The notes under the pieces were generated by a model that did not search any database, was not told where the DNA came from, and was given only the letters and a program-made list of their open reading frames with translations. A program made the translations under genes and the position numbers. Below are positions 39,090 through 61,659 of a stretch of DNA of 64,000 nucleotides, piece by piece. Origin of the DNA: Candidatus Omnitrophota bacterium (lineage in GTDB: Bacteria > Omnitrophota > Omnitrophia > Omnitrophales > Aquincolibacteriaceae); assembly GCA_022709525.1 (NCBI GenBank), contig JAKLIQ010000005.1, positions 71,966-135,965 on the forward strand, given 5' to 3'. How positions within the stretch are numbered: the first letter of the stretch is position 1; every line of letters begins with the position of its first letter.

Positions 39090-40172
39090 CTATCTTCTTC
39101 CTCTGGCCGGCGCCTGGATCTTCGAAAGCTGAACGCTCAGTTCGTGGGCATCCACGGCGAACTCAAGCGCTGCGTCATAGCCGATCACGCCTTGGGAATA
39201 GAGTTGTTTTAAGTAATCGTCGAGCATGATCATTCCGAAACGCGACCCCGTCTGCAACTCCGAAAGAATCTGATAAGTTTTGCCTTCCCGGATAAGGTTG
39301 CGGATGGCCGGCGTCGCGAACATGATCTCGAACGCGGCAACGCGCCCTTTCCCGTCCAGTCGCGGGACCAAGACCTGGGAAATGACAGCGACGATCGTCG
39401 CGGCGAGCTGGACCCGGACAAGCGGCTGTTGGTGGGAGGGAAAAACATCGATGATGCGATCGACCGTTCGTGCGGCACCCGTCGTGTGAAGCGTGGAAAA
39501 GACCAAATGGCCCGTTTCCGCGGCGCGGATCGCCGATTCCATGGTCGGAAGATCGCGCATTTCCCCGATCAGGATGACATCCGGGTCCTGCCTTAAGGAT
39601 TTTACGATCGCTTCGGAAAAACTCGGTACGTCCTCGCCCACTTCGCGCTGGGTCACAATGCCTTTTTTATGCGGGTGGACGAATTCAATGGGGTCTTCCG
39701 CCGTAATGAGGTGCTTCGGAAAGGTTTCGTTGATGTAATTGAGCATGGTGGCGAGCGTCGTCGTCTTACCGGAACCGGTGGGGCCGGTCACAAGTACGAG
39801 ACCGCGCGGAAGGTTCAGAGTTTCGATGATCTGCGGCGGCAGGCCGATGTCCTGGAAGGTATAGAACCGGGACGGCAGAAGGCGCAACACCATGGAATAA
39901 TGACCTTGTTGCTTAAAACAGGAAACGCGGAATCTGGCTTTTTCCTTAAATGAAAAACCAAAGTCGATACCGCCGACTTCCTCGATCTTCTTACGCTGGA
40001 CTTCCGTCGTGATCTCCTTCGCCAGCGCCTCTGTATCTTGAGGCACCAAAGGCCTTGAGCCGACCGAGACCAGGCTCCCGACCATGCGGTAGGTCACGGG
40101 CCTTCCCACGGTCAGATGAATGTCCGAAGCTTCTTTTTCAACCGCGCCCAACAAAATATCTTCGATAGCCAT
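39090..40172 (-). CDS. pilT: Type IV pilus retraction ATPase PilT.
   Basis: 360 aa. Walker A GPTGSGKTTT. The AIRNLIREGK motif typical of PilT/PilU. Confidence 0.9.
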   Translation of the reverse strand: MAIEDILLGAVEKEASDIHLTVGRPVTYRMVGSLVSVGSRPLVPQDTEALAKEITTEVQRKKIEEVGGIDFGFSFKEKARFRVSCFKQQGHYSMVLRLLPSRFYTFQDIGLPPQIIETLNLPRGLVLVTGPTGSGKTTTLATMLNYINETFPKHLITAEDPIEFVHPHKKGIVTQREVGEDVPSFSEAIVKSLRQDPDVILIGEMRDLPTMESAIRAAETGHLVFSTLHTTGAARTVDRIIDVFPSHQQPLVRVQLAATIVAVISQVLVPRLDGKGRVAAFEIMFATPAIRNLIREGKTYQILSELQTGSRFGMIMLDDYLKQLYSQGVIGYDAALEFAVDAHELSVQLSKIQAPARGRR

Positions 40173-40361: not shown

Positions 40362-40868
40362 TTAGAAAACCAGTCGCGTGATCCCCCATAGAGCCATAGA
40401 AATAAATCCTGCCAAAAGACAAAGAAGCGGCCATCCTTTCATGGATGAGGGAACCCTCGAAAGAAGCAACTGGTACCGGAGCCCTAAAAAGCAGACCTGG
40501 AAAAATGCGATTCCCAAGCTTATCGCCCAAACCCATGAAAGCGAGGTTAAAAAACCTTCCTGCCTTAAAAGAACCGCAAAGACCGTTACGGCGACACAGA
40601 GGAAAAAAAGATCCGTCTTTTTTTGATAACGGGCAAGAAGGTAGCTCGCGGCCCCGATCCCCAGGAACGCGTACTCGCGGGCAAGGGCTTGGGCCTTCCC
40701 GACCGACGTCCATACGATCCAGAGCGCGACAAGCAGCGCCGTCGTTAAAAAAAAGTCTACGGCTTCGCGCCAAACGCGCCTCAGTCCTTCTTTGGGGTCC
40801 TGCAGAGGCGCGGGTTTTGCGCCCCGCACCGCCAGCAAGAAACCGAACGCGATGATCAAAAAATACAC
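40362..40868 (-). CDS. Hypothetical integral membrane protein (4-5 TM).
   Basis: 168-aa hydrophobic ORF at the 3' end of the bio-rnf operon. No GLCP-type RnfA/E motif. Confidence 0.4.
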   Translation of the reverse strand: MYFLIIAFGFLLAVRGAKPAPLQDPKEGLRRVWREAVDFFLTTALLVALWIVWTSVGKAQALAREYAFLGIGAASYLLARYQKKTDLFFLCVAVTVFAVLLRQEGFLTSLSWVWAISLGIAFFQVCFLGLRYQLLLSRVPSSMKGWPLLCLLAGFISMALWGITRLVF

Positions 40869-40869
40869 G

Positions 40870-41397
40870 TTATCCTCTTTTCTGGTAGGGCTGGTTCTTC
40901 CATAAAAAAGCGATCGCGGCGATCACAAGCAGCGTGCCCGCCGGCTGTTCGAAGATCCCGAGGCCGAGGTCTTTGGCGGCAACATCCTTTACCAAAGCTA
41001 AAAGCGCCGTAAAACCCGCGAAGCCGATCCCCGCCGCGATCCGTTCAAAAGCATAGCGCGGGATCTTTTTTGAAAAAATACGCACGGGGTCCGTGCTTGC
41101 GCGATCGTCAAAAAAAGGTGAGGGGGTCAGAAAAAAAACGCTCAGGATCCAAAAAGGCGGCAGTTTCGTTACCGCCCAAACCGCCTGCCCCCAAACGATC
41201 AGCCAAAGAAAAAAAGCGTGTTTGAGGACCGGCCGGAAGAAAAACCGGCGGGTCAGCCAGAAAAAAAGGACGCTCCCCCAGAAGAACAGAACGATCCAGG
41301 CCGCGGCCACGCAGCTTCTAAAAAAACCGTATGGGTAGACCATCAACGGCAGGTAGGCCAAAAGGACTCGTGAAAAGAACCGTTCGGGCAGTTTCAT
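40870..41397 (-). CDS. Hypothetical integral membrane protein (4-5 TM).
   Basis: 175-aa hydrophobic ORF. It starts 2 bp after the previous gene's end. Confidence 0.4.
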   Translation of the reverse strand: MKLPERFFSRVLLAYLPLMVYPYGFFRSCVAAAWIVLFFWGSVLFFWLTRRFFFRPVLKHAFFLWLIVWGQAVWAVTKLPPFWILSVFFLTPSPFFDDRASTDPVRIFSKKIPRYAFERIAAGIGFAGFTALLALVKDVAAKDLGLGIFEQPAGTLLVIAAIAFLWKNQPYQKRG

Positions 41398-41512
41398 TGT
41401 TTTGAAGTCCTTATTTCAGCGCCTTAAAAGTTCGGCCACATAGAGAATGCCGGCGAGAAGGCATAGAAAGAAGATCAGGAAGAGGCCTTTCAGCGCCGCA
41501 ATGGCTGCTTTT

Positions 41513-42376
41513 TTAATGTTCATAGGGATAAGTCGCTTGGATCAGGTTCTTTGCCCTGTAAGGAGCCGGCTTAAAGCCCGCGTCGAGCCAGGGCGTTAGA
41601 AGATTCATGAAAAGAACGGCGTATCCGGCGCTTGCGATCGAAAAGCCGCCGGGATCAAGCCGGGAACTTAAAAGCGCCGCGCCGAGAACAAAAAACGCCG
41701 CGCCTTTTTTTGTCAGCGGCATGCCGGAAGGATCGGCCAAAAGAAAAAAGGCGGTAAAGAGAACACCGCTAAAAAACATGAGGGGCGTTGCTTCCCCTCC
41801 GAATAGCGCTTCACAGAAAAAACATGCCGCCATAAAAAGAAGCGGTGTTTCCCACCGGCCCTGCTTTGAATCAAAAAAAATGCCTGCGCTGAGAAGCAAA
41901 GCGGCAAACGTCCAGACGCTACTCTCCCCGGCAAAAAGCGCCGGCTCGACCATGACCCCCGGAAAACAGATCTGTAAAAAGACCCTTGAAAGCAAGAGAG
42001 GATGGAACGGGCAGGCGCCTGTTCCGCCAAAAAGTTCCCTGGCCCCCACGACCGCCAGGAACATCCCGAGCACAACAAGCTCCGAGGGGCATCGCGAAGG
42101 CAGAAGGAGCGAAAAAACCGAGGCCATGAAAACAATTTCGCCTGTTTGAAGCCTTTCTTTTTTTCCGAAGATTTTCGCCGAAAGAAAGTCGAACGCGACT
42201 CCGCTTACCAGAGAGATCAGAAGCGTCCGCAAAACCTCCGCGTGTCCGGTCAAGCAAGCCGCCAGGAACAAAGGTATGAGCGCGAGCGTTTGCCTCCCAT
42301 AGCGCCGGGAGAGACTGTTTTGGGAATGGATGTAAGGAGAAATTGTTTGTCCGGAAGAAGTTTTTAGATCAACCAT
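41513..42376 (-). CDS. rnfD: RnfD/NqrB-family membrane subunit (short form).
   Basis: 287 aa. [36 protein letters not shown] aligns with E. coli RsxD [39 protein letters not shown] vs [25 protein letters not shown] vs FFILTDPVTASTT. Confidence 0.7.
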   Translation of the reverse strand: [287 protein letters not shown]

Positions 42377-43655
42377 GGGCCGCCACCTGCCTCATATGGC
42401 CTTTGGCCAAATGGATCAGCTCCAGCATCGGACGGTTGGAAGGGCAAATATAGGCGCAGTTGCCGCATTCGATGCAATCCGCGGCATCCCACGCCCCGGC
42501 GATCCCGAATTCTTTTTGTTCCGCCGCGAGCGTGATCGTCGCCGGCGAAAGCGAGACCGGGCAATGATCCACGCAAAGACCGCACCGGATGCACGGCTCT
42601 TCTTTACCTTTTTTGACGACCTCTTTGGGTAATGCCAAAATGGCGCTTGTGCCCGCTGTCACGAAGGATTCTCCGGTTTTTTTCTCCGCCCCGGCCATGG
42701 GGCCGCCCATCAGGACTTTTTCCGGTTCGCGCATGACGCCTTTGCACGCGCGGATCGCGTCCTGAAAAGAAACGCCTAAAGGAAGCCACAGGCTGCGCGG
42801 TTCCACCACACATTCGCCGCCGACGGTTACGACCCTTTCATAAAAAGGTTTTTGGAGCGCAACGGCTTCATAGGCCGCGAACGCCGTGGATGCCGGAAAA
42901 ACCACCGCCTCGTCTTCCTTCCCACGGGACCACGCCTGAAGCAATGTGCTTTCGAGGCCTTGCGGGTAGATCGCCGGCACGGTCCGGACTTCGGCTTGTT
43001 CCCATTTTAAAAAATAGATCTTACTTTTGATAAGTTCGATCGTTTCAAGATTGGTGTCTTCGAACGCGAAAACGATCCTTGCCGCGCCACAGGCCTTTCT
43101 GAGGATCTCCGCACCTCGAAGAACCTCGACGGGATGAGACATGATGAGGACCTGCTCACAGGTAAGGTAGGGCTCGGGTTCGCAACCATTGATGATAACG
43201 CTTCGCGCGCTGACGTGACGCTGGATCTTCACATGAACGGGTTCTTCTCCGGGGTTGGTCATCACAAGCCCCGAATTGCGGAAGATCTTAAGAAGTTCTT
43301 CGGAATCGATCCCCTCCCACCCTTTGCGCGGGTCCGGAGCCGGAACCGTTTTAGGTTCTCCCTGCCGCCGGATCCCGATGGCGGAAATCTCGCGGTTGCG
43401 ACCGTTTTCGAGTATGCCGGTCTTCTCGACAACGCCCGCGATACCGGCATGAACGCTCACGCCTTTGGGTCCCTCCGGCTTCGCGATCATTTGCCCGGCC
43501 TGAACGGCGTCTCCCGCCCGGACACAGGGCAAGGAGGCCAGAGAAAGGGGGATGCTTATTTTTTCGGGAGGCAAGGGACGCTTGAGGTTCCAGTTCAGGA
43601 GGCTGGCCTCTTTTTTTCTTTCGAGACGAACGCCGGTCGGTTTGCGTATTTGCAA
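42369..43655 (-). CDS. rnfC: RnfC/NqrA-like subunit with two C-terminal 4Fe-4S ferredoxin motifs.
   Basis: The in-frame region downstream of the bioD stop aligns with E. coli RsxC: ASLLNWNLKRPLPPEKIS vs NKIWDFNGGIHPPEMKT. VIINGCEPEPYLTCEQVLI vs LIINAAECEPYITADDRLM. CIRCGLCVDHCPV and CIECGNCAYICPSNRP vs CIRCSACADACPA and CIECGACAWVCPSNIP. The listed 713-aa ORF's first ~280 codons overlap bioD in another frame and are spurious. The start is probably TTG 43655 (preceded by AAGGAA), overlapping the bioD 3' end. Confidence 0.7.
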   Translation of the reverse strand: MQIRKPTGVRLERKKEASLLNWNLKRPLPPEKISIPLSLASLPCVRAGDAVQAGQMIAKPEGPKGVSVHAGIAGVVEKTGILENGRNREISAIGIRRQGEPKTVPAPDPRKGWEGIDSEELLKIFRNSGLVMTNPGEEPVHVKIQRHVSARSVIINGCEPEPYLTCEQVLIMSHPVEVLRGAEILRKACGAARIVFAFEDTNLETIELIKSKIYFLKWEQAEVRTVPAIYPQGLESTLLQAWSRGKEDEAVVFPASTAFAAYEAVALQKPFYERVVTVGGECVVEPRSLWLPLGVSFQDAIRACKGVMREPEKVLMGGPMAGAEKKTGESFVTAGTSAILALPKEVVKKGKEEPCIRCGLCVDHCPVSLSPATITLAAEQKEFGIAGAWDAADCIECGNCAYICPSNRPMLELIHLAKGHMRQVAAHG

Positions 43656-43672
43656 AGGCGTTTCCTTTCGGA

Positions 43673-44518
<846 letters not shown>

Positions 44519-45868
44519 TTATTTTTTCGTGGTTTCTTCGATTGATTCATAAGTAATTTCCAGCAGTTTATTCAGCTCCCGTTCACTCATCGCTAAAGGC
44601 GGCATCAGCACGATCACGGGGCCCAAGGGCCGCAGAATCGCTCCTTTTTTTCTCGCCCGCTCGATCACGCGAACACCGATTTTTTCTTCGGGCTTAAAAG
44701 ATCCTTTCGTCTTTTTGTCGCGCACAAGCTCGATCCCGACCATGGTCCCGCACTGCCGGATATCGCCGACCGATTTCAGCCGATGAAAATCCTTCAGGCG
44801 GTCCCGCATCAGCCGGATCTTCGGCTGAAGTTTTTCCAGCGTTCTGTCTTTACGGAAAAGATCGATTGTCGCGTTCGCGGCAGCACAGGCTAACGGGTTC
44901 GCGGTATAAGTGTGGCCGTGAAAAAATGTTTTAAATTCTTCGTGACGGCCCAGGAACGCTTCGTAGACCTCTTCGGTCGTCAGCGTCGCGGCGAGCGGCA
45001 AATAACCGCCCGTCATGCCTTTGGCGACCGCCATGATATCCGGCGTTACGTTCTCATGGTCTGCCGCAAACATCTTTCCCGTGCGGCCGAACCCTGTCGC
45101 GACCTCATCAAAGATCAGAAGGATATTATACTTTCGGGTCAATTCCCTGGCACGGGAAATGTATTCGGCGGGCTGGTCGATCATGCCGGCGGCGCCTTGC
45201 ATGAGGGGCTCCATCACGAGCGCGGCGATCTCTTCGTGATGTTCGCGCAAAACTTTTTCCATGGCTTCGAGCGATTCTTTTTTGACTTTTCCCGGGTCGT
45301 CGCCCGTAGGCCATCGGTAGCGGTAAGGCGACGGCATCTCAAAAGTGTCAAAAAGAAGCGGTTTATAGATCTGATGAAAAAGGTCGACCCCGCCGACGCT
45401 CACGGAGCCCAGCGTGTCGCCGTGATAAGCGTTCGTGAGTTTGGCGAAACGCTTTTTTTTCGTATTGCCCCGCTGCTGCCAGTACTGGAACGCCATTTTA
45501 AGCGCGACCTCAACGGCTTCGGAGCCGGAATCGGAATAAAAAACGCGAGCGAGTCCCTTAGGCGAGATCTGAATGAGTTTTTCCGCAAGCTCAATGGCGG
45601 CGGGATGGGTCAAGCCGAGGAAAGTCGTGTGCGCGATCTTTCCGAGCTGCTTTTTGACGGCCCGGTCGATCGCTTTCACGCGGTGCCCGAACACATTGCA
45701 CCAAAGCGACGACACGCCGTCCAGATATTTCCGGCCGGTCGTATCATAAAGGTAAGAGCCCTTCCCTTTTTCGATGACCAGGACTTCTTCGGATTGCCAG
45801 TCACGCATCTGCGTGAAAGGATGCCAGATATATTTCTTATCTTTGGAGATGAGTTTTTTTGCGTCCAT
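44519..45868 (-). CDS. bioA: Adenosylmethionine-8-amino-7-oxononanoate aminotransferase.
   Basis: 449 aa. Class III aminotransferase signatures, LIFDEVATGFGRTG. Confidence 0.9.
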   Translation of the reverse strand: MDAKKLISKDKKYIWHPFTQMRDWQSEEVLVIEKGKGSYLYDTTGRKYLDGVSSLWCNVFGHRVKAIDRAVKKQLGKIAHTTFLGLTHPAAIELAEKLIQISPKGLARVFYSDSGSEAVEVALKMAFQYWQQRGNTKKKRFAKLTNAYHGDTLGSVSVGGVDLFHQIYKPLLFDTFEMPSPYRYRWPTGDDPGKVKKESLEAMEKVLREHHEEIAALVMEPLMQGAAGMIDQPAEYISRARELTRKYNILLIFDEVATGFGRTGKMFAADHENVTPDIMAVAKGMTGGYLPLAATLTTEEVYEAFLGRHEEFKTFFHGHTYTANPLACAAANATIDLFRKDRTLEKLQPKIRLMRDRLKDFHRLKSVGDIRQCGTMVGIELVRDKKTKGSFKPEEKIGVRVIERARKKGAILRPLGPVIVLMPPLAMSERELNKLLEITYESIEETTKK

Positions 45869-45871
45869 TCC

Positions 45872-47053
45872 TTAGCTTTTTTCCATTTTTATTTTTTTGA
45901 ACGCCGCAAAAAGACCTTGGATGTCTTTTTCCGTATGCGCGGCGGAGACGGTGATGCGGAGGCGGGCTTTGCCTCTAGGAACGGTCGGATAGCGAATGGC
46001 GGGAATAAAAATCCCCAGGGCGAGCAGTTTTTCGAACGCTTCCATCGCTTTTTTTTCGTCGCCAAGGATCACGGGCAGAACCGCGGATTCGGGCTCCGCG
46101 AGCCGGAACCCGAGCTTCGTAAGCCTTTGATGGACTTCGCGGATATTCGCCCAGAGTTTTTTAACAAGCGCCGGCTCTTCTTCGATCACGCAGAAAGCTT
46201 CGTGTGCGGATTCGCAAAGGACGGGCGGGAGGGCCGTTGCAAAAAGGAACGGCCGGGCAAAATTGGTCAAATAGCCGATCAGGTCTTTATCTGCCGCCAC
46301 GAACCCGCCGAGCCCCCCAATGGCTTTGGAAAGCGTTCCCATGATGATGTCGATGCTTTTTGAAAAAAGAGTGGTGGCTCCGGAACCATTTTTGCCGAAT
46401 ACACCTGTGCCGTGCGCATCGTCCACGATGAGAAACGCGCCGTATTTTTTTTTAAGGCGCGCCAGCTCTTTAAGGTCTGCCCGATCGCCGTCCATCCCGA
46501 AAACGTTTTCCGTGACAAGAAGTTTCCGCCGCGCCGTGCATTTTTTCAGGAGCTCTTCGCATTTTTCATAATTTTTGTGAGGAAAAACGCGGATCTCGGC
46601 CCCGGAAAGCCTCGCCCCGTCGATCAGTGAGGCGTGGCAGAGTTTGTCCATGATAATGACGTCCCCTTTTCCGGCAAAAACCGTCAAAATGCCGAGATTG
46701 GCAAGAAATCCCGCCGCAAACACAAGCGCGCTTTCCTTTTGTTTGAAGGCCGCGATCTTTTTTTCGAGCTTCGCGTGCGCGTCCGTAGTTCCGGCGATCA
46801 GCCGCGCGGAACGCGCGCCGACCCCGTAGCGGTCAATCGCTTGATGGGCCGCCGCGAGGACGCGCGGGTGGCGGCTTAAGCCGAGATAATCGTTCCCGCA
46901 AAAAAGAAGGAGCTCTCGCCCTTCGAAGGACGCGCGCGTGCCGCGATGGTTCTCAAGGACGCGGAGTTTCCGGTAGAGGTTTTTTTTCTGAAGCTCTTTG
47001 AGTTCTTTTTGATATTCGCTTTTCATGTCCTTCCCCCTCACCCCTGTACACAC
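45872..47053 (-). CDS. bioF: 8-amino-7-oxononanoate synthase.
   Basis: 393 aa. Class II aminotransferase (GTLSKAIGGLGG PLP-Lys region). Confidence 0.88.
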   Translation of the reverse strand: MCTGVRGKDMKSEYQKELKELQKKNLYRKLRVLENHRGTRASFEGRELLLFCGNDYLGLSRHPRVLAAAHQAIDRYGVGARSARLIAGTTDAHAKLEKKIAAFKQKESALVFAAGFLANLGILTVFAGKGDVIIMDKLCHASLIDGARLSGAEIRVFPHKNYEKCEELLKKCTARRKLLVTENVFGMDGDRADLKELARLKKKYGAFLIVDDAHGTGVFGKNGSGATTLFSKSIDIIMGTLSKAIGGLGGFVAADKDLIGYLTNFARPFLFATALPPVLCESAHEAFCVIEEEPALVKKLWANIREVHQRLTKLGFRLAEPESAVLPVILGDEKKAMEAFEKLLALGIFIPAIRYPTVPRGKARLRITVSAAHTEKDIQGLFAAFKKIKMEKS

Positions 47054-47068
47054 CGGGTGTGTACAGGG

Positions 47069-48274
47069 TTAAATCTTTCGTAAAAGAACCGCGGCGACTT
47101 GGCCGCCGAATCCCATGGAAACCTTGATCGCGTTCCCGATCGTGGCGGACCGTGCTTTTCCCGGCGTATAGTCAAGATCGCATGCCGGTTCTTTTTCCTC
47201 GAGCCCTACGGTCGGCGGGATAAAGCCCTCTTTTATGCCCAGAAGCGTCGCGATGATCTCGACCGCGCCGGTCGCGCCGAGCACATGCCCTGTCGCGCCT
47301 TTGGTTGAACTCATGGGGATCTTATAAGCGTCTTGGCCAAGCGCCTCTTTCAGTTCCAGCGTTTCATAAAGATCGCCGTGTTTCGTCCCGGTCCCGTGAA
47401 GGTTGATATAGTCGATCTCTTTAGCGGTAAGCCCTGTTTTTTCCATTAAAAGTTTCAGCGTGGAAGAGAGGGCGTGCTCCTCGAAGTCAAAATGGATCGG
47501 CTGTTTACTGTCCTGCCCGTAGGCGGCCTCGCTGATCTCGCCATAAATCCTCGCCCCGCGCGCCTTCGCGCTTTCCAGCGTTTCAAGAAAGACCACGCCG
47601 GCGCCTTCGCCGATAAGGAATCCGTCGCGGCGCTTATCGAACGGGCGGAGGTCCCGGGACGCAAGCGCCTTCATATTTTGATAACCGCCCAGCATAAGAG
47701 GCGTCATAGAGGCATCGGTCGCCCCGGCAAGGCAATATTCGGCTTGACCTTCCGAGACCATGCGGAACCCTTGAATGATAGCCACTGTCCCTGTCGCGCA
47801 CGCCGCCACATAACATTTAGCGGGCCCCTGGATCTTCAGGCGACGCGCGATCCACTGATCGGCAAAATTCGGCACCGCGCTTGTATACATCCGGGCGCCT
47901 AAAATGGCGCTTGGGTTTTTCAACAGGCGGCCCTTGAAACGGTCGAGACTGTGAACGCCGCCTTTGCTTGAACTCACGGAGAGTGAAATACTGTAAGGAT
48001 CCGCGGCCGAAAGATCAAAGCGGGCATCCGTAACGGCCTGTTCCGCGGCGGCCACGGCATATTGGATGAAAGGGTCAAGAAGGTGCGTCTTGTAAGCTCT
48101 CGGGTCAAATTTTTTGAGAGGAAAGATCGGGGGAAACTCGTAACCCCCCACGATGGAATGCTCTTCTTTTTCTTTGCCACAAATGCCGGCTTTGAGATTT
48201 TGAGAAAATTCGGCGACCGTATTTCCAATCGAGGAAAGGATCCCAATACCCGTCACTACCACCCGTCGTTTCAT
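47069..48274 (-). CDS. Beta-ketoacyl-ACP synthase (FabF/FabB-like) embedded in the bio operon.
   Basis: 401 aa. VVTGIGILSS. Active-site region CYVAACATGTVAI. HGTGT. Confidence 0.85.
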   Translation of the reverse strand: MKRRVVVTGIGILSSIGNTVAEFSQNLKAGICGKEKEEHSIVGGYEFPPIFPLKKFDPRAYKTHLLDPFIQYAVAAAEQAVTDARFDLSAADPYSISLSVSSSKGGVHSLDRFKGRLLKNPSAILGARMYTSAVPNFADQWIARRLKIQGPAKCYVAACATGTVAIIQGFRMVSEGQAEYCLAGATDASMTPLMLGGYQNMKALASRDLRPFDKRRDGFLIGEGAGVVFLETLESAKARGARIYGEISEAAYGQDSKQPIHFDFEEHALSSTLKLLMEKTGLTAKEIDYINLHGTGTKHGDLYETLELKEALGQDAYKIPMSSTKGATGHVLGATGAVEIIATLLGIKEGFIPPTVGLEEKEPACDLDYTPGKARSATIGNAIKVSMGFGGQVAAVLLRKI

Positions 48275-48319
48275 TTTTTTGATAGCCCCTCCAGGATGCG
48301 AACAGAGAGGGATTTTACC

Positions 48320-49048
48320 CTAGAAAAGCCGGGATTCAAAATGAAAGACTTGTCCGGTGACCTGGCGCATCCGGTCGGAGGAAAGAAAAACGAGGAAATC
48401 CGCGACTTCCGAGGGATCCGAAAAAGCCTTGAGCGGACTGATCGCAAGATTCTTTTGTAAAATCTCTTCGGGCACCTTTTCCGTAATGGAAGAACGCATA
48501 AATCCCGGGTTCACGGCGTTCACGAGGATCTTTTTGCGGCCCAATTCTTTAGCGAGCGTTTTGGTCATGGCGATCAAGCCGCCCTTGGCCGCGGCATAGT
48601 TCGCGGCTCCGGCGAGCCCGTTCAGGCCCGCAATGCTGACGATATGAAAGACTTTGCTGGGCGCGCTCCGGAGCAATAAAGGAAGCAGCCGCTTGGTAAG
48701 GTAGAAGGGGGCTTTCAGATCGACTTTAAGGACTTTGTCCCACTGCTCTTCGGACATTCTTTCGATCAAAGCGTCGGCGGTCGCAACGGCATTGTGGATC
48801 AGGACATCCAACCGGCCGGTTTTTTTCTCCACTCCCGCCGCAAACTCTTCGATGGCCCGCGTATCGGCAAGATCTAAAACAGATCCTTCGCTGCCGGCCG
48901 CTTCGAGTTCTCGCGCTTTTTCGGCGGATTTGAGATAAGTAAAAAGAACGCGCGCGCCGGCTGAAATAGCTTTCCGCACAAAGGCCTGTCCGAGGACTCC
49001 GGTGCCGCCCGTGATTAAAATGGTTTTATCTTTAAGAGTTGTTTCCAA
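48320..49048 (-). CDS. 3-oxoacyl-ACP reductase-like SDR (FabG-like) embedded in the bio operon.
   Basis: 242 aa. TGGTGVLG Rossmann motif. NAV...S..Y...K catalytic pattern. Confidence 0.85.
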   Translation of the reverse strand: METTLKDKTILITGGTGVLGQAFVRKAISAGARVLFTYLKSAEKARELEAAGSEGSVLDLADTRAIEEFAAGVEKKTGRLDVLIHNAVATADALIERMSEEQWDKVLKVDLKAPFYLTKRLLPLLLRSAPSKVFHIVSIAGLNGLAGAANYAAAKGGLIAMTKTLAKELGRKKILVNAVNPGFMRSSITEKVPEEILQKNLAISPLKAFSDPSEVADFLVFLSSDRMRQVTGQVFHFESRLF

Positions 49049-49051
49049 GGA

Positions 49052-50074
49052 TTACCGGGCAGGACCGCAAACGCTGTCTGCGGCGGGAGTTGCGGCTTCG
49101 ACGGAAAAACCGGCATTCCGGAGCATGCCCAAGTCTTCCCGGACCGGATTGCCGGTCGTGGTGAGATAGCCCCCCACCACAAATCCGTTCACGCCGCCGC
49201 GAAGCGCTTTTTCCTGGAAATAAACTCCGAGATTAAGCTCCCTGCCGCCCGCGAGTTTGATATTGACGCGGGGATGGATCAAGCGGAAGATCGCGATCGT
49301 TTTCACGATCTCGGCGGGATCGACGGGCGGCCGGTCTTCAAGCGGTGTTCCCGGGCGCGGGTTCAAGATGTTGATAGGAAGACAGCGCGGGCTAAAGGGT
49401 TTGAGCTCGAACGCGAGCCTGATGCGGTCTTCGCGCGTCTCCCCCATTCCGAAAATACCGCCCGAACAGACCTCAACGTCATTTTCATTTAAAAATTTGA
49501 GCGTTTCCATGCGTTCATCATAAGTGTGTGTGGAAACGATCTCCGGATAGAATTCCCGCGAACACTGCAGATTATGGTTAAAGCGCCGCATGCCCGCGCC
49601 CCGGAGCTTTCGGATCTGTTCGGCCGTCAGATTCCCCAGCGATCCGTCCAAGCGAAGATTTGTTTTTTCGCTTAAAAGGCGGAAGGTGGCGAGGACCTGC
49701 TCAAATTCGGAATGATCCAGGGTTTCGCCGCTTGTCACGACACAAAAGCTTTTGACGCCGGCCGCTTCGCTTTGCCGCGCGGCTTCCAGAACTTCTTCGG
49801 GCTTCATGAGCGGGTAGCGTTTGACGCCGGTTTTATAGTGGGAAGATTGGGAACAAAAACCGCAGTCCTCGGAACAAAGATAACTTTTTGCGTTCACGAG
49901 CGAGCAAAGGTCCGGCTGTGAGGGGCAGAATTTTTGGGTCACTGCGTGAGCGGCTTCCAAGAGAAGGTCTGTCGTGGGAATATCTTCGATGGAGGCCAAG
50001 CGGAGGGCCTCGTCGTAGGTGATCTCTCCCCCCGAAAGGACCCTGGACTGCAGCGCTTGGATGAGTTTTTTCAT
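49052..50074 (-). CDS. bioB: Biotin synthase (radical SAM).
   Basis: 340 aa. CSEDCGFCSQS (CxxxCxxC). Aligns along its length with E. coli BioB (CSGGI.G.GET). Confidence 0.9.
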   Translation of the reverse strand: MKKLIQALQSRVLSGGEITYDEALRLASIEDIPTTDLLLEAAHAVTQKFCPSQPDLCSLVNAKSYLCSEDCGFCSQSSHYKTGVKRYPLMKPEEVLEAARQSEAAGVKSFCVVTSGETLDHSEFEQVLATFRLLSEKTNLRLDGSLGNLTAEQIRKLRGAGMRRFNHNLQCSREFYPEIVSTHTYDERMETLKFLNENDVEVCSGGIFGMGETREDRIRLAFELKPFSPRCLPINILNPRPGTPLEDRPPVDPAEIVKTIAIFRLIHPRVNIKLAGGRELNLGVYFQEKALRGGVNGFVVGGYLTTTGNPVREDLGMLRNAGFSVEAATPAADSVCGPAR

Positions 50075-50098: not shown

Positions 50099-51352
50099 CT
50101 AGGCCTGCGCGAAGACCTCGCGGGCGACGATGCCGACGACGCCGAGCGCCACGGCGTTCTCGCCAAAGGCCGACGGGATGATCTTCACCTGGGTGGCGGC
50201 CTCTTCGACCGACCATTCCTTGACCGTGTTCTTGATGGAGTCAAGGAGCGGCGCGCCGCAGTCTTCCACGCCGCCGCCGATCACGACCACTTCGGGATTA
50301 AGAAGATTTACGATAAAAGCGATCTTCTTGCCAAGATCTTGGCCGGCCTGCTCAACCACTTTCAGGGTTAAAGGGTCTTTTTCTTTGACGCCGCGGACGA
50401 TCTCTTTGAAGGTGATCTTGTTCAGGTCGCCTTTGACGAAATCCTTAATGGCGGAAGTCTCGCCTTTTTCGATCCTCTCGCGAGCGTGCCGCACGGTGCC
50501 GATCTCCATTTCCCAACGGCCGAGCTGGTTCTCGATTTTGAAGGCATAATCCTTGGTGGCGCGCGGGCTCATGATCCCGAGCTCTCCCGCGGCTCCGTTC
50601 GCCCCGCGGTAGATCTCCTCATTAATGAGAATGCCGCAGCCGACGCCTGAGAACATATAGACCATGTTCCGTACGTCACGGTCAAGGCCAAGCCATTTTT
50701 CGCCGAGCACCGCCGCGTTCGCGTCATTTTCAACGATCGTGGGGATGTTGAGACGTTTTTCAAAAGTGTCTTTAATGGAAGAGCAGACTGAAATATCCTT
50801 ATCGCCCAAGCTCTGCGGCCAACGGATCGTGCGGCCGCGCTCGTCGATGATGCCCGGAACGCCGACGCCCACGCCGACGATCTTGGATTTGTCGATCTCC
50901 GCTTTTTCGATGATCTCCGCCGCAAGGTCGACCATTTGCAAAATGACTTTTTCGGAATTTTCGGGGGCCCTTTCGCGCTTGATCTCGCTGATCACGTTGA
51001 TCTCAAGATCCACTAAGACCGCGACCATGCTCATCATGTTCAACCCGACGCCCACGATATAGCCGGCCTTCGGGTTGAGCTCCACGAGCACGGGTTTCCG
51101 GCCACCGGTGGATTCGTCCAGCTCACCTTCGATCACAAGGCCTTTTTTGATGTAATGGCTGACGTAGTTCGAGACCGTCACAATGTTCAATTCGGTCAGT
51201 TTGGAAATATCCGTCCTGGAGATAGGGCCGTTTTTCCGGATCACTTCAAGAATGGCGAGGTTTTTTCTCTCCTTGTCGGTCAGGGTTCGGTCTTTGAGCA
51301 TCTGTTTAATGATCATGAGATTGGAACTCCTTTCAGGAACGGTTTCTGTCAT
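50099..51352 (-). CDS. ROK-family transcriptional regulator (NagC/Mlc-like).
   Basis: 417 aa. N-terminal winged HTH. ROK sugar-kinase-like core with a glycine-rich GVGVGVPGIID. Confidence 0.8.
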   Translation of the reverse strand: MTETVPERSSNLMIIKQMLKDRTLTDKERKNLAILEVIRKNGPISRTDISKLTELNIVTVSNYVSHYIKKGLVIEGELDESTGGRKPVLVELNPKAGYIVGVGLNMMSMVAVLVDLEINVISEIKRERAPENSEKVILQMVDLAAEIIEKAEIDKSKIVGVGVGVPGIIDERGRTIRWPQSLGDKDISVCSSIKDTFEKRLNIPTIVENDANAAVLGEKWLGLDRDVRNMVYMFSGVGCGILINEEIYRGANGAAGELGIMSPRATKDYAFKIENQLGRWEMEIGTVRHARERIEKGETSAIKDFVKGDLNKITFKEIVRGVKEKDPLTLKVVEQAGQDLGKKIAFIVNLLNPEVVVIGGGVEDCGAPLLDSIKNTVKEWSVEEAATQVKIIPSAFGENAVALGVVGIVAREVFAQA

Positions 51353-51514
51353 AACTTCTTTCGTTAACGCTATATAAGTAGCTCAAGAGCCACTCATTTT
51401 AACTCCAACATATGCTTTGTCAAAGCATTAATTGAGTGCCGCCTGCGCGCTCATTTTTGCGCGCTTTTTAAGCATCTTAACTTATTTCAATGAAACAAGT
51501 TAGGTTATTTCTGG

Positions 51515-53602
51515 TTAAAAGAAACTTTCCTTCCCGAGCAGCTCTTTGGCCTTTTCGCCGACAGGGTCTTTGTGAAAATAGTCCTGGATCACACCTTTTT
51601 TAAGATAATTCGCGATCGGAATAAGGACCATCCCCTGATCCAGCGCCAAATATTGAGGGTTTACCTTCTGGCTCGGAAAAGTGATTGTGTCATAAAAACC
51701 GTACTCGCCATAGATGCTGAATTGAAGAAATGCGCGAATGTTGGCAATAGCGTCTTTCGGCAGGGTTTCCAACGCGAGAAAGCTTACGTGCGGCGTGATC
51801 ACGCCGCGGTCGGGATACCCTTTGACGCCGAGCCGCTTGATGCCATATTCGCCGTACTGCCATTTCCGGCCGTCCGTGGTGGCGGAAGGCGAGATGCCCC
51901 AAACCGGATATTTCTTTTCCCGCAACGCGTAATCCCGGTGAAGCTCCGTCACGATCCGGTTGTTGAGCCCGAGGTTTCTGGGGGCAAATTTTTTCTCGTG
52001 AACCACCATGGTCGGCATCAGGAACTCAAAAAGCGACCCGCCCCAGCTTGGCACGAATTTTTCTTTGCCGTCCTTATAATAGCCCTGAAAATAACTGACC
52101 CGGTCGCGCTGGACCATTTTCCCCTGAGGTTTTTGCGTCTGCCAGTTCCAGGCCGCCGGAGCCGTGCGATAAAGATACCACCAGTGATCTTTGGGAAGAT
52201 CGCCCTTGCCGATCCCGCAAAGGCTCATGGCCCGCGCCTCGGTGGCGAGCATGCCGTAATGGTAAGGGGTCATGGATTGGCGTTCTATGTCATAACCGAT
52301 CACAAGATGGTTGTTCTCCGGATCAAGGAATTCCTGGAAATGCATGGCGTCAAGAAGGGCAGTGGCGTCCTTGGCGATCTCTCCCTGGAAGGCCTGGCGG
52401 ACCACTACAAGAGAAATGGCGAGCCAGCCGTTATCGATGCTTGAGACAAATTGCCGGCTCACATTAAGCTGCGTTGTTTCATAAAAATTATAGAAAAACC
52501 CTTTCCAGGTCTTTAGCTTTTTCAGGGTCCGCAAAACGTCCTGAACGCGTTCCTCGGCTTCCGAGAAAGTGATAAGCTCCAGTTCGCGCGCCGCGACCGT
52601 GCCCATAAGGTCCATAGCGATATTGGTGGGCGAGGTGTACGCCGCGGCCAGAGGAAAATCCCCGACCTTGATGTGGTCGACCACGAGATGTTTTTTCTTA
52701 TCCCGCGCATCTTCAAAGTAACGCCACGTATCCTTGGCGATCCCGAGCAGGAATTCTTTTTCCCTTTTTGTCGCCAAGAGTTCCTTGCGCCGGGGTTCGT
52801 CAAATACGGTTTTAGGAAATCCCATCAGGTTATCCTCCACGCTCTCAAACCCCACTTCAGGGTGGCCGAAAAACGCGACCTCATCCAGGCCCAGTTTCCC
52901 CGCCATGTTGGTGTTCCGGGCAAGAATGTTGAAAGAAAGATAGTTCAGCTGGTTTAGATCGATGCCCGCGAAGGTCGAAAGCGGAAGCGTGGCATCATTC
53001 CAATCCGGTTTTTCGACGCAGGATTCCGTTATGTCTTTTTCAACCGTTTTCCCCGCCCAATCAGTCAAAGAGACCCGGATGCGGCCGCTGAAAGGCGTCG
53101 CAGAATCCACTTTGCATTTGAAAACAAGATAGCGCGCCGCGCTGATATCAAGGCGTTCCAGCGGGGCGCGGAACGAACCCTGGTCTTTGCTCCGGAGGTT
53201 GTACCTCGCCCAAAGCGAGGATCCGGACCTGACGCCGCGGCCGTCCTCTTTTTTAAGGTCAAGCCGGATTTTCTTTTCCTGCCCTTCCGCGACGAACCAG
53301 TTACCGCCGAGCTTGTTCTTAAGTTCCCCCGAATTGAAGTCGTCCACTACCTTGAATTGAGTGGAAGTTTGAAGGGATTTGCTGGGGGGCATGTTCTTGT
53401 AGACGTTCCCGATATCAAGCTCTTCTTTTTCCTCAGCGGGGCCGATCTGCTGCACGTAGGTTTCTGAGGGTCGAGAACGGGTTTCTTTGGAAGCGGCGTG
53501 AACCGTAAGAACAAAAGCAAAAAGCGGGAAAAGGGAAACGGAGAAGAAAGCGGCCTTCAGGATCTTTTTCGAACCCGACGGCCGCTTCCTTGAAAGGATC
53601 AT
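51515..53602 (-). CDS. Secreted DUF3131 / GH144-like (alpha/alpha)6 glycoside hydrolase family protein.
   Basis: 695 aa. Signal peptide. Overall pattern recalled as similar to endo-beta-1,2-glucanase-type DUF3131 proteins. Adjacent to the GH94 gene. Family assignment is from memory only. Confidence 0.5.
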   Translation of the reverse strand: MILSRKRPSGSKKILKAAFFSVSLFPLFAFVLTVHAASKETRSRPSETYVQQIGPAEEKEELDIGNVYKNMPPSKSLQTSTQFKVVDDFNSGELKNKLGGNWFVAEGQEKKIRLDLKKEDGRGVRSGSSLWARYNLRSKDQGSFRAPLERLDISAARYLVFKCKVDSATPFSGRIRVSLTDWAGKTVEKDITESCVEKPDWNDATLPLSTFAGIDLNQLNYLSFNILARNTNMAGKLGLDEVAFFGHPEVGFESVEDNLMGFPKTVFDEPRRKELLATKREKEFLLGIAKDTWRYFEDARDKKKHLVVDHIKVGDFPLAAAYTSPTNIAMDLMGTVAARELELITFSEAEERVQDVLRTLKKLKTWKGFFYNFYETTQLNVSRQFVSSIDNGWLAISLVVVRQAFQGEIAKDATALLDAMHFQEFLDPENNHLVIGYDIERQSMTPYHYGMLATEARAMSLCGIGKGDLPKDHWWYLYRTAPAAWNWQTQKPQGKMVQRDRVSYFQGYYKDGKEKFVPSWGGSLFEFLMPTMVVHEKKFAPRNLGLNNRIVTELHRDYALREKKYPVWGISPSATTDGRKWQYGEYGIKRLGVKGYPDRGVITPHVSFLALETLPKDAIANIRAFLQFSIYGEYGFYDTITFPSQKVNPQYLALDQGMVLIPIANYLKKGVIQDYFHKDPVGEKAKELLGKESFF

Positions 53603-53610
53603 AGCTTCGT

Positions 53611-56070
53611 CTACCCCAAAATGACTTCGACCCGGTGGATTCCGCTATCCCGGAAGTCGGGAATGAGATTTTCTTTTTGTTTCTTCCCGTCCACAAAAAC
53701 GCTTCGGACGCCCTGCCCCGTCTGACCGGGATTTTTGACTTCAATGAGATACGTCGCTCCGCGGAAAAGCCGTTTTATTTTAAATCCCGCCCATTTTTTC
53801 GGGATCACGGGATCGACCAAGAGCCCTTTGGCCGTCGGCCGGATGCCGAGAAGCCAGTTCATCACGACGACAGCATACCACGCCGCCGAACCGGTGTACC
53901 AGGTCCAGCCGCCGCGGCCGTTGTTGGGAGAATCCGGACCGTCTACGTTCCCCGGCGTCACATAGGGTTCGCTGTAATAGATGTCCGGCTCGGTGCCGCG
54001 AAGCGCGGGATTGAAACTTTTATAGACCTGATAGGCCTTGTCGCCGTCGCGCATCATGGTCTCCGCCTGAACGGCCCAAGTACCCGCGTGCGTGTAAAGG
54101 CCGCCGTTCTCGCGGACCGAAGGCGCATAGCGCGTGATGTAGCCGATCGTCGCGTCGGTCTTGTTATAGCCCGGCGTTAAAAGAAGCGGGCCGTATTTTT
54201 TATAGAGCCATTTCGCGGCCGAATCCATGGCGACCCGCGCTCTTTTTTCATCGGCCACGCCCGTGATCACCGCCCAGGTCTGGCAGTTGAGGAAGATCTT
54301 ACCCGTTTCGCATTTTTTGCTGCCAAGCGGCCTTCCGTCATCACGCGTCGCCCCGAGATACCACTCCCCGTCCCATCCGTGCTCATTAAGGGCGCGTTTC
54401 ATCGCTTCCGCGCGTTTGAGATATTCCGCGGCTTTTGTTTTATCGCCGCGTTTTTCCATGATGGGCGCGATACGGTTAAGGATCCCGTAAAGAAAGTGCC
54501 CGAGCCATATCGATTCGCCTTTCCATTTAATGCCGACATGGCTTAAACCATCGTTCCAATCGCATTCTCCCATCAAGGGCAGACCGCGCGGCGAAAATCT
54601 TGTAAACGCTTTATCGATCGACCGGAGAAGATGGTCATAAAGCGTGCCGGAGGTGACCTCTTTGGTCTTCGGGTCCGGAAGAAATTTTACTTTTGTGTCC
54701 AGGATCGCTTCGTCGGCTGTTTCATCGAGATAATTCAGTGTGATGAAATCAAGCCACAAAAGATCGTCGGAACAGTTCGTAATGGCCCCGGTGTTCGTGC
54801 CGTGATGCCACCAGTGATAGACGGTCCCGTCGGGGAACTGTTGCTCGGCGTGCATGAGGATCTGCTTTTTGGCAAGTTCCGGGCGCGTCGCGAAAAAGAT
54901 CTGGCAGTCCTGGAGCTGGTCGCGGAATCCGTAGCCGCCGCTCGATTGGTAGTAGGCGCACTTGGCCCAAATACGCGCCGAGATGGCCTGGTACTTCATC
55001 CAAATATTGGTCATGAAGTTAAGGGCTTCGTCCGGCGTTTCGACTTCCGAAGCGTGGATAAAAGAGTCCCAGAGCGCTTTGACGCGGTGCAATTCCTGGT
55101 CGACCGACTTGGGATGAGAATATTTCTGAATGATCCGTTCCGCTTCTTCGCGATTGCGCGTCGACCCGAGCGTAAAGACAACGGTTTTGGATTCTTTGGG
55201 TCCCAATTCAACATCGACTTGAAGGCTTGCTGCGGCATCGCCCCATTTGCCTTCCGAATTGCGGCATTTGCCTTCCACGACCGCGGCAGGCGCGTGGGTT
55301 TCGCCGTACCGGCCTAAAAAAGATTCTTTGTCGCCGTCATAAGCGACGGGTTTGGGGCTTGCCGCATGAAACCCCTGGAGCGGTTTCTCGGCCATGCCGG
55401 TCGAGATAAAACCGGGCACGAGCGGCGCCCGCTTCAGGCCGTGAATGCAGCCGTTCTTCCGGTCGATCCATGTTTCAATGAACGTTTTATGGAACTCGCG
55501 GTGCGTGTCCGACCAGTTGCCGAGGCACCAATCAAAGTAAGTAAAAACGCTGAGACGGCGTTTTTTCCCCGACTCGTTCGTTAAAACGACTTTCCAGACT
55601 TCGACCGGGTCTTCCACGTCGACAAAGACCGTTTTTTCGAAGCGGATCCCATGGAGCTTGCTGGTCAAAACCGAGTAGCCCTGCCCATGACGAACCTCGA
55701 AAAAATCATATCTCGGCATGCAGGGTTTCCAGGTACCGGACCAATAATCGCCGTTGTCCCGGTCGCGGACATAGATGTATTTCCCCCAATTGTCCCGGAT
55801 GAGGTCCTGGTCCCAGCGCGTAACCCGTGAGAGGTTGGAATTGTCGCGCCATGAAAATCCCGATCCCGTCTGGGTTTCGATCATGCCGTAATCCCCGTTG
55901 GAGATCACATTCACCCAGGGCCGCGGCGTATCGGGGCGCGTGATCACATATTCGCGCCCGTCGGCCGTGAAATAACCGTACTTGGAAGCGAATTTTTTTT
56001 CGGCGGGAATCCCCGCTTTCCCTCGAACTGTTATTTTTACCTTTTCTTTAGTTTTTGTTTTTTTGGGCAT
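53611..56070 (-). CDS. GH94-family glycoside phosphorylase (cellobiose/cellodextrin/beta-1,2-oligoglucan phosphorylase-like).
   Basis: 819 aa. GGYGFRDQLQDCQ, ENGGLYTHAGTWAV and GRGGWTWYTGSAAW are characteristic of GH94 catalytic domains. Confidence 0.8.
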   Translation of the reverse strand: MPKKTKTKEKVKITVRGKAGIPAEKKFASKYGYFTADGREYVITRPDTPRPWVNVISNGDYGMIETQTGSGFSWRDNSNLSRVTRWDQDLIRDNWGKYIYVRDRDNGDYWSGTWKPCMPRYDFFEVRHGQGYSVLTSKLHGIRFEKTVFVDVEDPVEVWKVVLTNESGKKRRLSVFTYFDWCLGNWSDTHREFHKTFIETWIDRKNGCIHGLKRAPLVPGFISTGMAEKPLQGFHAASPKPVAYDGDKESFLGRYGETHAPAAVVEGKCRNSEGKWGDAAASLQVDVELGPKESKTVVFTLGSTRNREEAERIIQKYSHPKSVDQELHRVKALWDSFIHASEVETPDEALNFMTNIWMKYQAISARIWAKCAYYQSSGGYGFRDQLQDCQIFFATRPELAKKQILMHAEQQFPDGTVYHWWHHGTNTGAITNCSDDLLWLDFITLNYLDETADEAILDTKVKFLPDPKTKEVTSGTLYDHLLRSIDKAFTRFSPRGLPLMGECDWNDGLSHVGIKWKGESIWLGHFLYGILNRIAPIMEKRGDKTKAAEYLKRAEAMKRALNEHGWDGEWYLGATRDDGRPLGSKKCETGKIFLNCQTWAVITGVADEKRARVAMDSAAKWLYKKYGPLLLTPGYNKTDATIGYITRYAPSVRENGGLYTHAGTWAVQAETMMRDGDKAYQVYKSFNPALRGTEPDIYYSEPYVTPGNVDGPDSPNNGRGGWTWYTGSAAWYAVVVMNWLLGIRPTAKGLLVDPVIPKKWAGFKIKRLFRGATYLIEVKNPGQTGQGVRSVFVDGKKQKENLIPDFRDSGIHRVEVILG

Positions 56071-58514: not shown

Positions 58515-58547
58515 GGTATGGCTCCTTTTAAAAAATAGATTGCTGTC

Positions 58548-59441: not shown

Positions 59442-59453
59442 GGATCCTCCGAA

Positions 59454-59469
59454 TGTTTCACGTGAAACG
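59454..59469. promoter_or_regulatory. parS site (TGTTTCACGTGAAACG, 15/16 match to consensus).
   Basis: Seen directly, 13 bp upstream of parA. Consensus tGTTNCACGTGAAACa. Confidence 0.85.
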
Positions 59470-61638: not shown

Positions 61639-61659
61639 TCTCTTTTAGGGGGTTTTCCT

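Follow-up and report, generated by a model that had tools for sequence, protein, structure and literature searches.

A reduced biotin operon of FabF/FabG type followed by a cofactor-stripped Rnf paralog without RnfB in Candidatus Omnitrophota

The region described here is positions 40362-50074 of a stretch of 64,000 nucleotides (nt) from a Candidatus Omnitrophota bacterium (assembly GCA_022709525.1, contig JAKLIQ010000005.1, positions 71,966 to 135,965 of the forward strand); this whole stretch is called the window in the following. The region holds a biotin (bio) operon and, directly after it, a set of genes related to those of the Rnf complex. The strand of every long open reading frame (ORF) between 50074 and 40362 is minus, and the features are listed in Table 1 in the order in which they are read. 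A prime marks the fabF- and fabG-like paralogs in the biotin operon and the subunits of the divergent Rnf set, Rnf'.

Table 1. Features of the bio-rnf' region and its two flanks (aa, amino acids; KAS, beta-ketoacyl synthase; SDR, short-chain dehydrogenase/reductase; E, E value; PDB, Protein Data Bank).
Feature	Position	Strand	Evidence
ROK-family (NagC-like) regulator or kinase (flank)	50099-51352	-	PF00480 in relatives; NagC/ROK matches below cutoff
bioB, biotin synthase	49052-50074	-	TIGR00433 361 bits (cutoff 225); Radical_SAM and BATS domains
FabG', fabG-like 3-oxoacyl reductase paralog, SDR	48320-49048	-	adh_short_C2 E 6e-47; TIGR01830 200 bits
FabF', KAS II/fabF-like beta-ketoacyl synthase paralog	47069-48274	-	ketoacyl-synt N and C domains; TIGR03150 344 bits
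bioF, 8-amino-7-oxononanoate synthase	45872-47053	-	TIGR00858 442 bits (cutoff 426)
bioA	44519-45868	-	TIGR00508 570 bits (cutoff 405)
bioD, dethiobiotin synthase	43673-44473 (longest ORF; likely ATG start 44407)	-	TIGR00347 165 bits (cutoff 83)
bioD-rnfC' spacer, 17 nt with AAGGA ribosome-binding site	43656-43672	-	read from sequence
rnfC', 428 aa, TTG start; RnfC_N, NuoF-like, SLBB and 2x[4Fe-4S] domains	42369-43655	-	TIGR01945 281 bits (cutoff 246); PDB RnfC 7zc6_C E 5e-57
rnfD', 287 aa	41513-42376	-	PF03116 E 1.9e-41, split in two stretches
rnfG' remnant, 35-aa micro-ORF, single transmembrane helix	41416-41523	-	present in 28 loci; hhalign to longer G-slot proteins
rnfE', 175 aa, highly divergent	40870-41397	-	RnfE homology and fold; no Pfam match
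rnfA', 168 aa	40362-40868	-	NCBIfam RsxA E 9e-6; no Pfam match; C-terminal half recognisably RnfA/NqrE
pilT (flank)	39090-40172	-	TIGR01420 442 bits; 189 nt downstream of rnfA'

Relatives of the locus were collected by a scan of one genome per species, which gave 53 loci with RnfC' relatives (RnfC' identity 38-71%). Four metagenome loci (L001-L004) were joined to these, and the counts for RnfC' cover up to 57 loci. All named RnfC' relatives, from the nearest matches and the 53-locus scan, are Candidatus Omnitrophota. Comparisons of cofactor sites cover 27-57 sequences depending on the subunit, and the statistics of the bioD-rnfC' gap cover the 49 related loci showing both genes. A close relative of the window locus, L059 (~93% nucleotide identity), was the reference for the ratios of nonsynonymous to synonymous substitution rates (dN/dS).

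The genes bioB, FabG', FabF', bioF, bioA and bioD are contiguous on one strand, as an earlier sequence-only reading of this DNA had stated, and profile searches identify all six. The scores of FabG' (200 bits against an equivalog cutoff of 298) and FabF' (344 against 494) both fall under the cutoffs for the housekeeping enzymes, which is consistent with what is expected for specialised paralogs. The two genes are bracketed by bioB on one side and bioF, bioA and bioD on the other, and this layout agrees with the earlier description of a dedicated KAS and ketoreductase inside a cluster of Desulfovibrio type. The claim that bioC, bioH and bioW are absent also stands: the ORFs of the window that were scanned include none of the three, a scope (ORF 33555-33878 lies outside it) which applies as well to the searches for RnfB and for a second rnf set reported below. 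The single methyltransferase among these ORFs, at 16163-17152, lies inside an unrelated signalling island, and no bioC candidate was found. Between bioB and bioD there is no dedicated gene for an acyl carrier protein (ACP) and no FabZ-like gene in the window, nor in the bio-cluster gene calls of L001-L004, and the bio cluster of the window has no birA. An Rfam and tRNA search of the whole window found no riboswitch or leader and no tRNA. The operon is thus a minimal Desulfovibrio-like FabF'/FabG' biotin operon.

FabG' keeps the catalytic triad S138/Y151/K155, while R15 and T37, which we take to be the residues contacting the 2'-phosphate of NADPH, are not conserved. In FabF', aligned to E. coli FabF, the residues C163, H303, H340, K335 and F400 are conserved. 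The back gate of the pocket is changed, as I108 is replaced by Lys in 36/36 and F202 by Tyr in 37/37 relatives (E. coli numbering). The I108-F202 gate of FabF sits at about C7-C8 of the bound acyl chain (PMC9006962). A Lys/Tyr gate at this place would be expected to shut the pocket to long chains and to bind the free omega-carboxylate of a glutaryl intermediate, and it fits omega-carboxy substrates and a pimelate route without methyl esters. FabF' and FabG' would then elongate a free omega-carboxy acyl thioester from malonyl to glutaryl to pimeloyl, with no methyl-ester disguise of the BioC/BioH kind. Since the cluster has no dedicated ACP or FabZ-like genes, the dehydratase, the enoyl reductase and the ACP would be borrowed from general fatty-acid synthesis. 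The invariant Lys/Tyr gate would offer a concrete structural explanation for how some anaerobes could make pimelate with no methyl-ester trick, and the operon would extend this pimelate route to another phylum.

The biotin synthase of the operon is unusual in the residues which hold the auxiliary cluster. Omnitrophota BioB has the radical-SAM CxxxCxxC motif and the BATS domain. Compared with E. coli BioB, all 27 Omnitrophota sequences have a Cys at the S43 position and keep Cys97 and Cys188, whereas there is no Cys at 128 and R260 is replaced by Lys. The ligands of the Type I (2Fe-2S) enzyme are Cys97, Cys128, Cys188 and Arg260, while the Type II (4Fe-5S) enzyme has a Cys at the S43 position, a Ser at 97, and retains Cys128 and Cys188 (Lachowicz et al., 2024, PMC10813225). 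Omnitrophota BioB differs from Type I by the absent Cys128 and the Lys for R260 in 27/27 sequences. It has the S43-position Cys in common with Type II, from which it differs by Cys97 in place of Ser and by the absent Cys128. The ligand set thus matches neither type and may represent a third coordination of the auxiliary cluster.

The bioD stop codon (TAA, 43675-43673) is followed 17 nt later by the TTG start of rnfC' at 43655. This is at variance with the proposal that the 3' end of bioD overlaps the start of rnfC and that the bio genes are translationally fused to the redox module: the two genes are in separate frames, and rnfC' has a start and a ribosome-binding site of its own. The apparent overlap comes from an out-of-frame 713-aa ORF (42369-44510) which stays open across bioD; it has no in-frame start between 43655 and 43900, and a BioD-RnfC fusion protein was rejected as a candidate on these grounds. 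The RnfC_N domain has just one in-frame start upstream of it, TTG 43655, which lies 7 residues before the domain, and the resulting 428-aa RnfC' is identical to the protein of the public gene call P0001.

An overlap is not conserved in relatives either, as the gap between bioD and rnfC' is never negative in the 49 loci; most loci (31) have a gap of 5-203 nt, a further 16 one of 1-2.1 kb, and the last 2 one of more than 3 kb. The sequence-only reading had named a terminator or promoter between bioD and rnfC as evidence that would speak against a joint operon. In a consensus scan no terminator-like site and no promoter-like site (at least 9 of 12 matches) was found in or just before the spacer. 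From this and the 17-nt spacing it follows that bioD and rnfC' are adjacent and probably co-transcribed in this genome, and that they neither overlap nor are fused.

The first two rnf' genes are, as had been noted, RnfC-like with two [4Fe-4S] motifs and RnfD-like and short, and the matches to TIGR01945 and PF03116 bear this out. The start of rnfD' overlaps the stop of rnfC' by 8 nt, and the rnfD' family profile aligns end to end with RnfD chains in the PDB (E 1e-59). The rest of the set had been described as two uncharacterised membrane proteins, and the module as partial and without signatures of RnfA, RnfE or RnfG. The profile searches which had been proposed as a check identify the two membrane proteins as homologues of RnfE and RnfA. 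The rnfA' family profile matches only RnfA and NqrE among solved chains (8ahx_A E 4.9e-10; 7xk3_E 4e-8). The RnfE' family is a small one: 1.84 billion proteins contain 105 representative clusters of it. By hhalign the RnfE' and RnfA' families show no mutual similarity. Two weak-scoring members of the RnfE' family, P0321 and P0306, are both encoded after an RnfD-like gene, and P0306 is in turn followed by a gene for a PilT-type ATPase.

A further gene had been overlooked. The 35-aa ORF between rnfD' and rnfE', which shares 11 nt with the end of rnfD', is what remains of RnfG. In deeper-branching loci the same slot is occupied by a protein of 160-255 aa with a transmembrane helix and a periplasmic domain, and the profile of these proteins matches essentially only RnfG in the PDB (8ahx_G E 4.6e-7; 7zc6_G 5.6e-4). 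By hhalign, the 35-aa sequences align to these longer proteins at their N-terminal helix (probability 94.9%, E 4.5e-8). When a profile of the 35-aa sequences by itself was searched against the PDB, the only match was to PscF, which was judged to be a chance transmembrane similarity. The single G-slot protein of locus L062 has no Pfam or PDB match by itself. In the same locus a 308-aa protein (3847-4773) stands in the place of rnfE' and rnfA'; its first ~90 residues match the RnfE' profile, a PilT-type ATPase gene comes directly after it, and it may be an RnfE'-RnfA' fusion. Upstream in L062 a peroxiredoxin-like fragment, recognised by eye from the translation, takes the place of rnfC'.

The module is therefore not partial in the sense proposed, but an rnfC-D-G-E-A set in canonical order in which only RnfB is missing. 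The order is the same as in several canonical Omnitrophota operons. Rnf operons have been tabulated for 14 Omnitrophota metagenome-assembled genomes, most of them a complete rnfBCDGEA (Williams et al., PMC8542988, Table S5); the lengths given there are ~170-195 aa for RnfG, ~190-215 aa for RnfE and RnfA, and mostly 250-300 aa for RnfB. Because canonical rnf operons occur elsewhere in Omnitrophota, the bio-linked rnf' genes are regarded as a second, divergent paralog. One might instead see in them the edge of a normal rnfABCDGE operon, a finding which had been named as one that would undo the sequence-only reading, and the C-D-G-E-A order is what such an edge would give. However, the set is complete within 43655-40362 and is then followed by pilT, no RnfB, ferredoxin or second rnf set was found among the scanned ORFs of the window, and the subunits are degenerate rather than canonical. 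We consider this explanation extremely improbable.

The degeneration concerns the cofactors. In canonical Rnf, RnfC carries flavin mononucleotide (FMN) and two [4Fe-4S] clusters, RnfD a covalent FMN and riboflavin, and RnfG a covalent FMN, while an intramembrane [2Fe-2S] cluster is held by cysteines of RnfA and RnfE; the cofactors of the membrane subunits are described as "strictly conserved" (PMC12174285). In Rnf' the eight Fe-S cysteines of RnfC', which make up its two [4Fe-4S] motifs, are conserved in 56-57/57 loci. The FMN loop of RnfC is lost, as GMGGATFP of 7ZC6 aligns to MTNPGEEPV in the window and the GG..FP motif is found in 0/57 loci. RnfC' has four family-specific cysteines, C282 (57/57), C158 (54/57), C44 (47/56) and C304 (47/57), which are absent from the C. 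tetanomorphum RnfC that was compared. In RnfD' the periplasmic segment with the flavinylated threonine (TTATPL) is deleted, and the flavinylation motif is found in 0/29 sequences. RnfG' in the subclade of the window has lost the entire periplasmic FMN domain and is left as the 35-aa transmembrane remnant; where distant relatives have an RnfG-like domain, the profile alignment shows a gap at the GAT segment, and L035 reads GAV. In the RnfE' family no Cys column reaches 30% and several members have no Cys at all, and in the RnfA' family the sole Cys column of at least 30% is position 150 (11/27).

With RnfB and nearly all cofactor sites lost, Rnf' cannot generate low-potential electrons in the canonical way. 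To judge from the motifs, it probably has neither the electron path of Rnf nor its redox-driven ion pump. Such losses could mean that the rnf-like genes are functionless, decaying remnants of a duplicated rnf operon, the more so as the membrane subunits are poorly conserved (mean column identity 30-33%) and all their catalytic cofactor sites are gone. Decay is nevertheless very improbable. Dozens of genomes, over the full range of RnfC' identity, have all five reading frames uninterrupted, the overlapping stop/start junctions are preserved, and the Fe-S cysteines of RnfC' are kept nearly without exception. The dN/dS values against L059 are 0.21 for rnfC', 0.17 for rnfD', 0.13 for the 35-aa rnfG', 0.16 for rnfE' and 0.16 for rnfA', with 0.25 for pilT, and all five rnf' genes are thus under purifying selection. 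Rnf' is a cofactor-stripped Rnf paralog which is conserved throughout Omnitrophota and has previously gone unremarked; in the literature we found no description of an RnfB-less or degenerate Rnf.

The neighbourhood of the two gene groups was compared among the relatives. In all 49 loci showing both genes bioD is upstream of rnfC'. On the other side rnfA' and pilT lie within 1 kb of each other in 36/36 loci reaching that far, and the neighbourhood of pilT and polA is also kept. The ROK gene lies 24 nt upstream of bioB, and the two are adjacent in 21/21 loci of one subclade. The top sigma-70-like promoter match (11/12) is at 51423-51396. The ROK gene is itself preceded by a DUF3131/glucoamylase-like gene and an 819-aa gene (region 50099-56070), the counterpart of the latter in relatives being a GH94 glycosyl hydrolase. 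The ROK protein is more likely to regulate sugar genes than biotin genes.

The block is interrupted in some lineages. In 16 loci of a deeper subclade mnmA, sometimes together with larE, stands between bioD and rnfC' (mnmA 414 bits, larE 313 bits), and 2 further loci have several unrelated genes in this place. The insertion of mnmA, which codes for tRNA 2-thiouridine synthase, is seen for example in L003 (8883-10004) and L049 (8093-9995), beside about 20 other loci, and a LarE-type sulfur transferase is also found in this place in L030, L033, L039 and L049. The end of mnmA and the start of rnfC' share 4 nt in L003. A membrane-anchored protein with 1-3 DsbA/Thioredoxin_4 domains is encoded on the same strand, tightly spaced, between rnfC' and rnfD' in at least 16 loci; in the deeper subclade these are L003 (11508-13835), L036-L040, L042-L045, L047, L048, L050, L053 and L056, and L062 (539-2395). 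In three loci, L035 (11359-18953), L049 (11330-18520) and L046, rnfC' and rnfD' are split by a ~7-kb cluster on the opposite strand. Judged by eye from the translations, this insert appears to code for an outer-membrane-like protein, a LolCDE-like ATP-binding cassette transporter, and LolA-like, ThiF-like E1, nitroreductase-like and PilZ/acyltransferase-like proteins.

The bio-rnf' adjacency is best read as part of a slowly eroding ancestral block, ROK-bio-rnf'-pilT-polA, and not as a biotin-specific operon. As the block is shared with pilT and polA and is interrupted in the deeper subclade, the conserved junction does not show a functional coupling. This bears on the hypothesis of the sequence-only reading, that the Rnf-like module shares a transcript with the bio genes and gives low-potential electrons to the radical-SAM enzyme BioB or to a reductive step of pimelate synthesis. 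It would agree with the short spacer after bioD with no terminator-like site, with the position of bio upstream of rnfC' in 49/49 informative loci, among them L003 with its different outer flanks, and with the retention of two [4Fe-4S] clusters in RnfC'. There is also a precedent for an extra redox protein, since in D. vulgaris an FMN/[4Fe-4S] nitroreductase-like protein encoded outside the cluster is required for biotin synthesis (PMC10102598). However, RnfB, the NADH/FMN site, both covalent FMN sites and the [2Fe-2S] cluster are all missing, the adjacency to bio is no better conserved than that to pilT and polA, one to several unrelated genes separate bioD and rnfC' in 18/49 loci, and the opposite-strand cluster splits rnfC' from rnfD' in three. 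We found no paper linking rnfC with bioB. We therefore consider electron supply of this kind unlikely, and an electron-donor or helper role in biotin synthesis for RnfC' with its two [4Fe-4S] motifs, for which location is the argument, is unproven.

The inserted genes suggest another possibility, that Rnf' is a thiol or sulfur redox module which works with BioB, MnmA, LarE and/or periplasmic DsbA-like oxidoreductases through the Fe-S clusters and extra cysteines of RnfC'. The presence of mnmA and larE between bioD and rnfC' in the deeper subclade, including the 4-nt overlap in L003, the DsbA-like gene between rnfC' and rnfD', and the four family-specific cysteines are in line with this, and the helper factor of the anaerobic BioB type has been reported as not found (Lachowicz et al., PMC10813225). 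On the other hand, DsbA-like, MnmA and LarE genes were looked for in the window and none is present there or in the subclade of the window. The membrane subunits have no conserved Cys or recognisable cofactor site which could serve transmembrane electron transfer, and the case is drawn from gene neighbourhood alone. We regard it as rather unlikely.

The reading we prefer, to which we give a probability of roughly 0.6, is that the biotin operon and the cofactor-stripped Rnf' without RnfB are separate systems which follow each other head to tail on the same strand, and that their adjacency is ancient synteny. Rnf' would not be able to act as an ion-coupled ferredoxin:NAD+ oxidoreductase. RnfD', RnfG', RnfE' and RnfA' would form a membrane platform tethering the Fe-S protein RnfC', which would exchange electrons with some partner or sense the redox state. 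Energy conservation would fall to a canonical Rnf, whose rnfBCDGEA operon would lie at another place in the genome, as has been reported for other Omnitrophota.

Several points weigh against this reading. The canonical rnf operon of this genome is presumed from other Omnitrophota, and the window holds none. The loss of cofactors is read from motifs, and a non-canonical binding of flavin or metal is possible, for example by the extra cysteines of RnfC' or at a riboflavin site which RnfD' may have retained. Co-transcription is deduced from the spacing and the missing terminator- and promoter-like sites. The bio genes are upstream of rnfC' wherever enough sequence is visible, even where the outer flanks are rearranged as in L003, which is compatible with a functional link. 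Dedicated genes for an ACP and for FabZ-like proteins, which D. vulgaris has in its cluster, are missing from the bio cluster of the window, and FabF' is not established as an ortholog of DVU2563. Finally, the function proposed for Rnf' is generic.

A more daring proposal would be that Rnf' has been repurposed, and that RnfC', with its two [4Fe-4S] clusters and a possible four-Cys site, is the helper, so far missing, that brings electrons or sulfide to the non-Type-I BioB of anaerobes, serving sulfur-insertion enzymes which depend on Fe-S clusters. We regard this as decidedly unlikely. If true, it would account for the persistence of bioB next to Rnf' throughout the phylum, and for that of mnmA, larE and the DsbA-like genes in sister lineages.

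The Rnf and NQR complexes are treated as machines with strictly conserved membrane cofactors, yet Rnf' keeps all subunit slots except that of RnfB and has shed the flavin sites and the [2Fe-2S] cluster. That such a stripped complex is under selection suggests a second, non-pumping use of the Rnf scaffold. Metabolic reconstructions which score matches to RnfC or RnfD as "Rnf present" can mislead in Omnitrophota.

Some other features of the window should be mentioned. At 1-8878 a stop-free frame of at least 2959 codons on the minus strand runs off the start of the window; its last 1000 residues contain HEAT repeats and its first 1000 have no Pfam match, and it looks like the giant proteins reported for Omnitrophota. 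A low-GC island with signalling genes lies at 12550-19500 (35-40% GC against ~53% elsewhere). It holds a histidine kinase with seven-transmembrane and GAF domains (7TM-GAF), the methyltransferase mentioned above and two receiver-domain proteins, and at 17577-18272 a phosphopantetheine-binding (ACP-like) domain is fused to a receiver domain. Two adjacent HSP20/alpha-crystallin genes, one with an N-terminal extension of ~120 aa, are found at 21576-22805. The genes parB, parA, mnmG (gidA), yidC and rnpA are grouped at 57570-63978, and the cumulative GC skew has its minimum near 54-56 kb; the window probably adjoins the replication origin.

Among the closest known counterparts of the biotin operon is the cluster DVU2558-2565 of Desulfovibrio, which consists of bioB, two FabZ-like genes, a FabG-like gene, an ACP gene, a FabF-like gene, bioF, bioD and bioA. 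In D. vulgaris this FabF/FabG-type cluster has been found by random barcode transposon-site sequencing (RB-TnSeq) to be needed for biotin synthesis (PMC10102598). The two clusters share bioB and bioF/A/D flanking a dedicated KAS and ketoreductase, the absence of bioC and bioH, and an anaerobic host. Unlike the Desulfovibrio-type cluster, that of the window has only FabG' and FabF', with no dedicated ACP, FabZ-like genes or birA. Omnitrophota are not among the phyla listed for this cluster in the same paper, and the KAS genes are here compared by layout and not as established orthologs. The BioZ pathway of alpha-proteobacteria is another parallel, as there too a dedicated ketosynthase starts from a C5 omega-carboxy primer and builds the C7 dicarboxylate skeleton independently of BioC and BioH (PMC7645780, PMC8024396). 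The enzyme, BioZ, is a KAS III which condenses glutaryl-CoA with malonyl-ACP. BioZ is thus of FabH type, whereas FabF' is of KAS II type with a Cys-His-His triad.

Rnf' resembles the canonical Rnf complexes (7ZC6, 8AHX, 9ERI) in having five of the six subunits, the C-D-G-E-A order, the domain architecture of RnfC including the C-terminal 2x[4Fe-4S] domain, the core of RnfD and the fold of RnfE and RnfA. It differs from them by having no RnfB, no FMN loop in RnfC, no flavinylation loop in RnfD and no Cys ligands for a [2Fe-2S] cluster in RnfE and RnfA. RnfG' is a 35-aa helix or, in distant relatives, carries a periplasmic domain in which GAT is missing, and the membrane subunits have diverged strongly. 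NqrA of the Na+-translocating NADH:quinone oxidoreductase (Na+-NQR), an RnfC homologue which has lost all redox cofactors, shows that a subunit of RnfC type can stay in its complex after loss of the flavin site (PMC12174285). RnfC' differs from NqrA in keeping both [4Fe-4S] motifs, and it scores 281 bits as RnfC against an E value of 2e-9 for NqrA. In contrast to Na+-NQR, Rnf' has no NqrF, and the flavin sites of NqrB/C type are absent.

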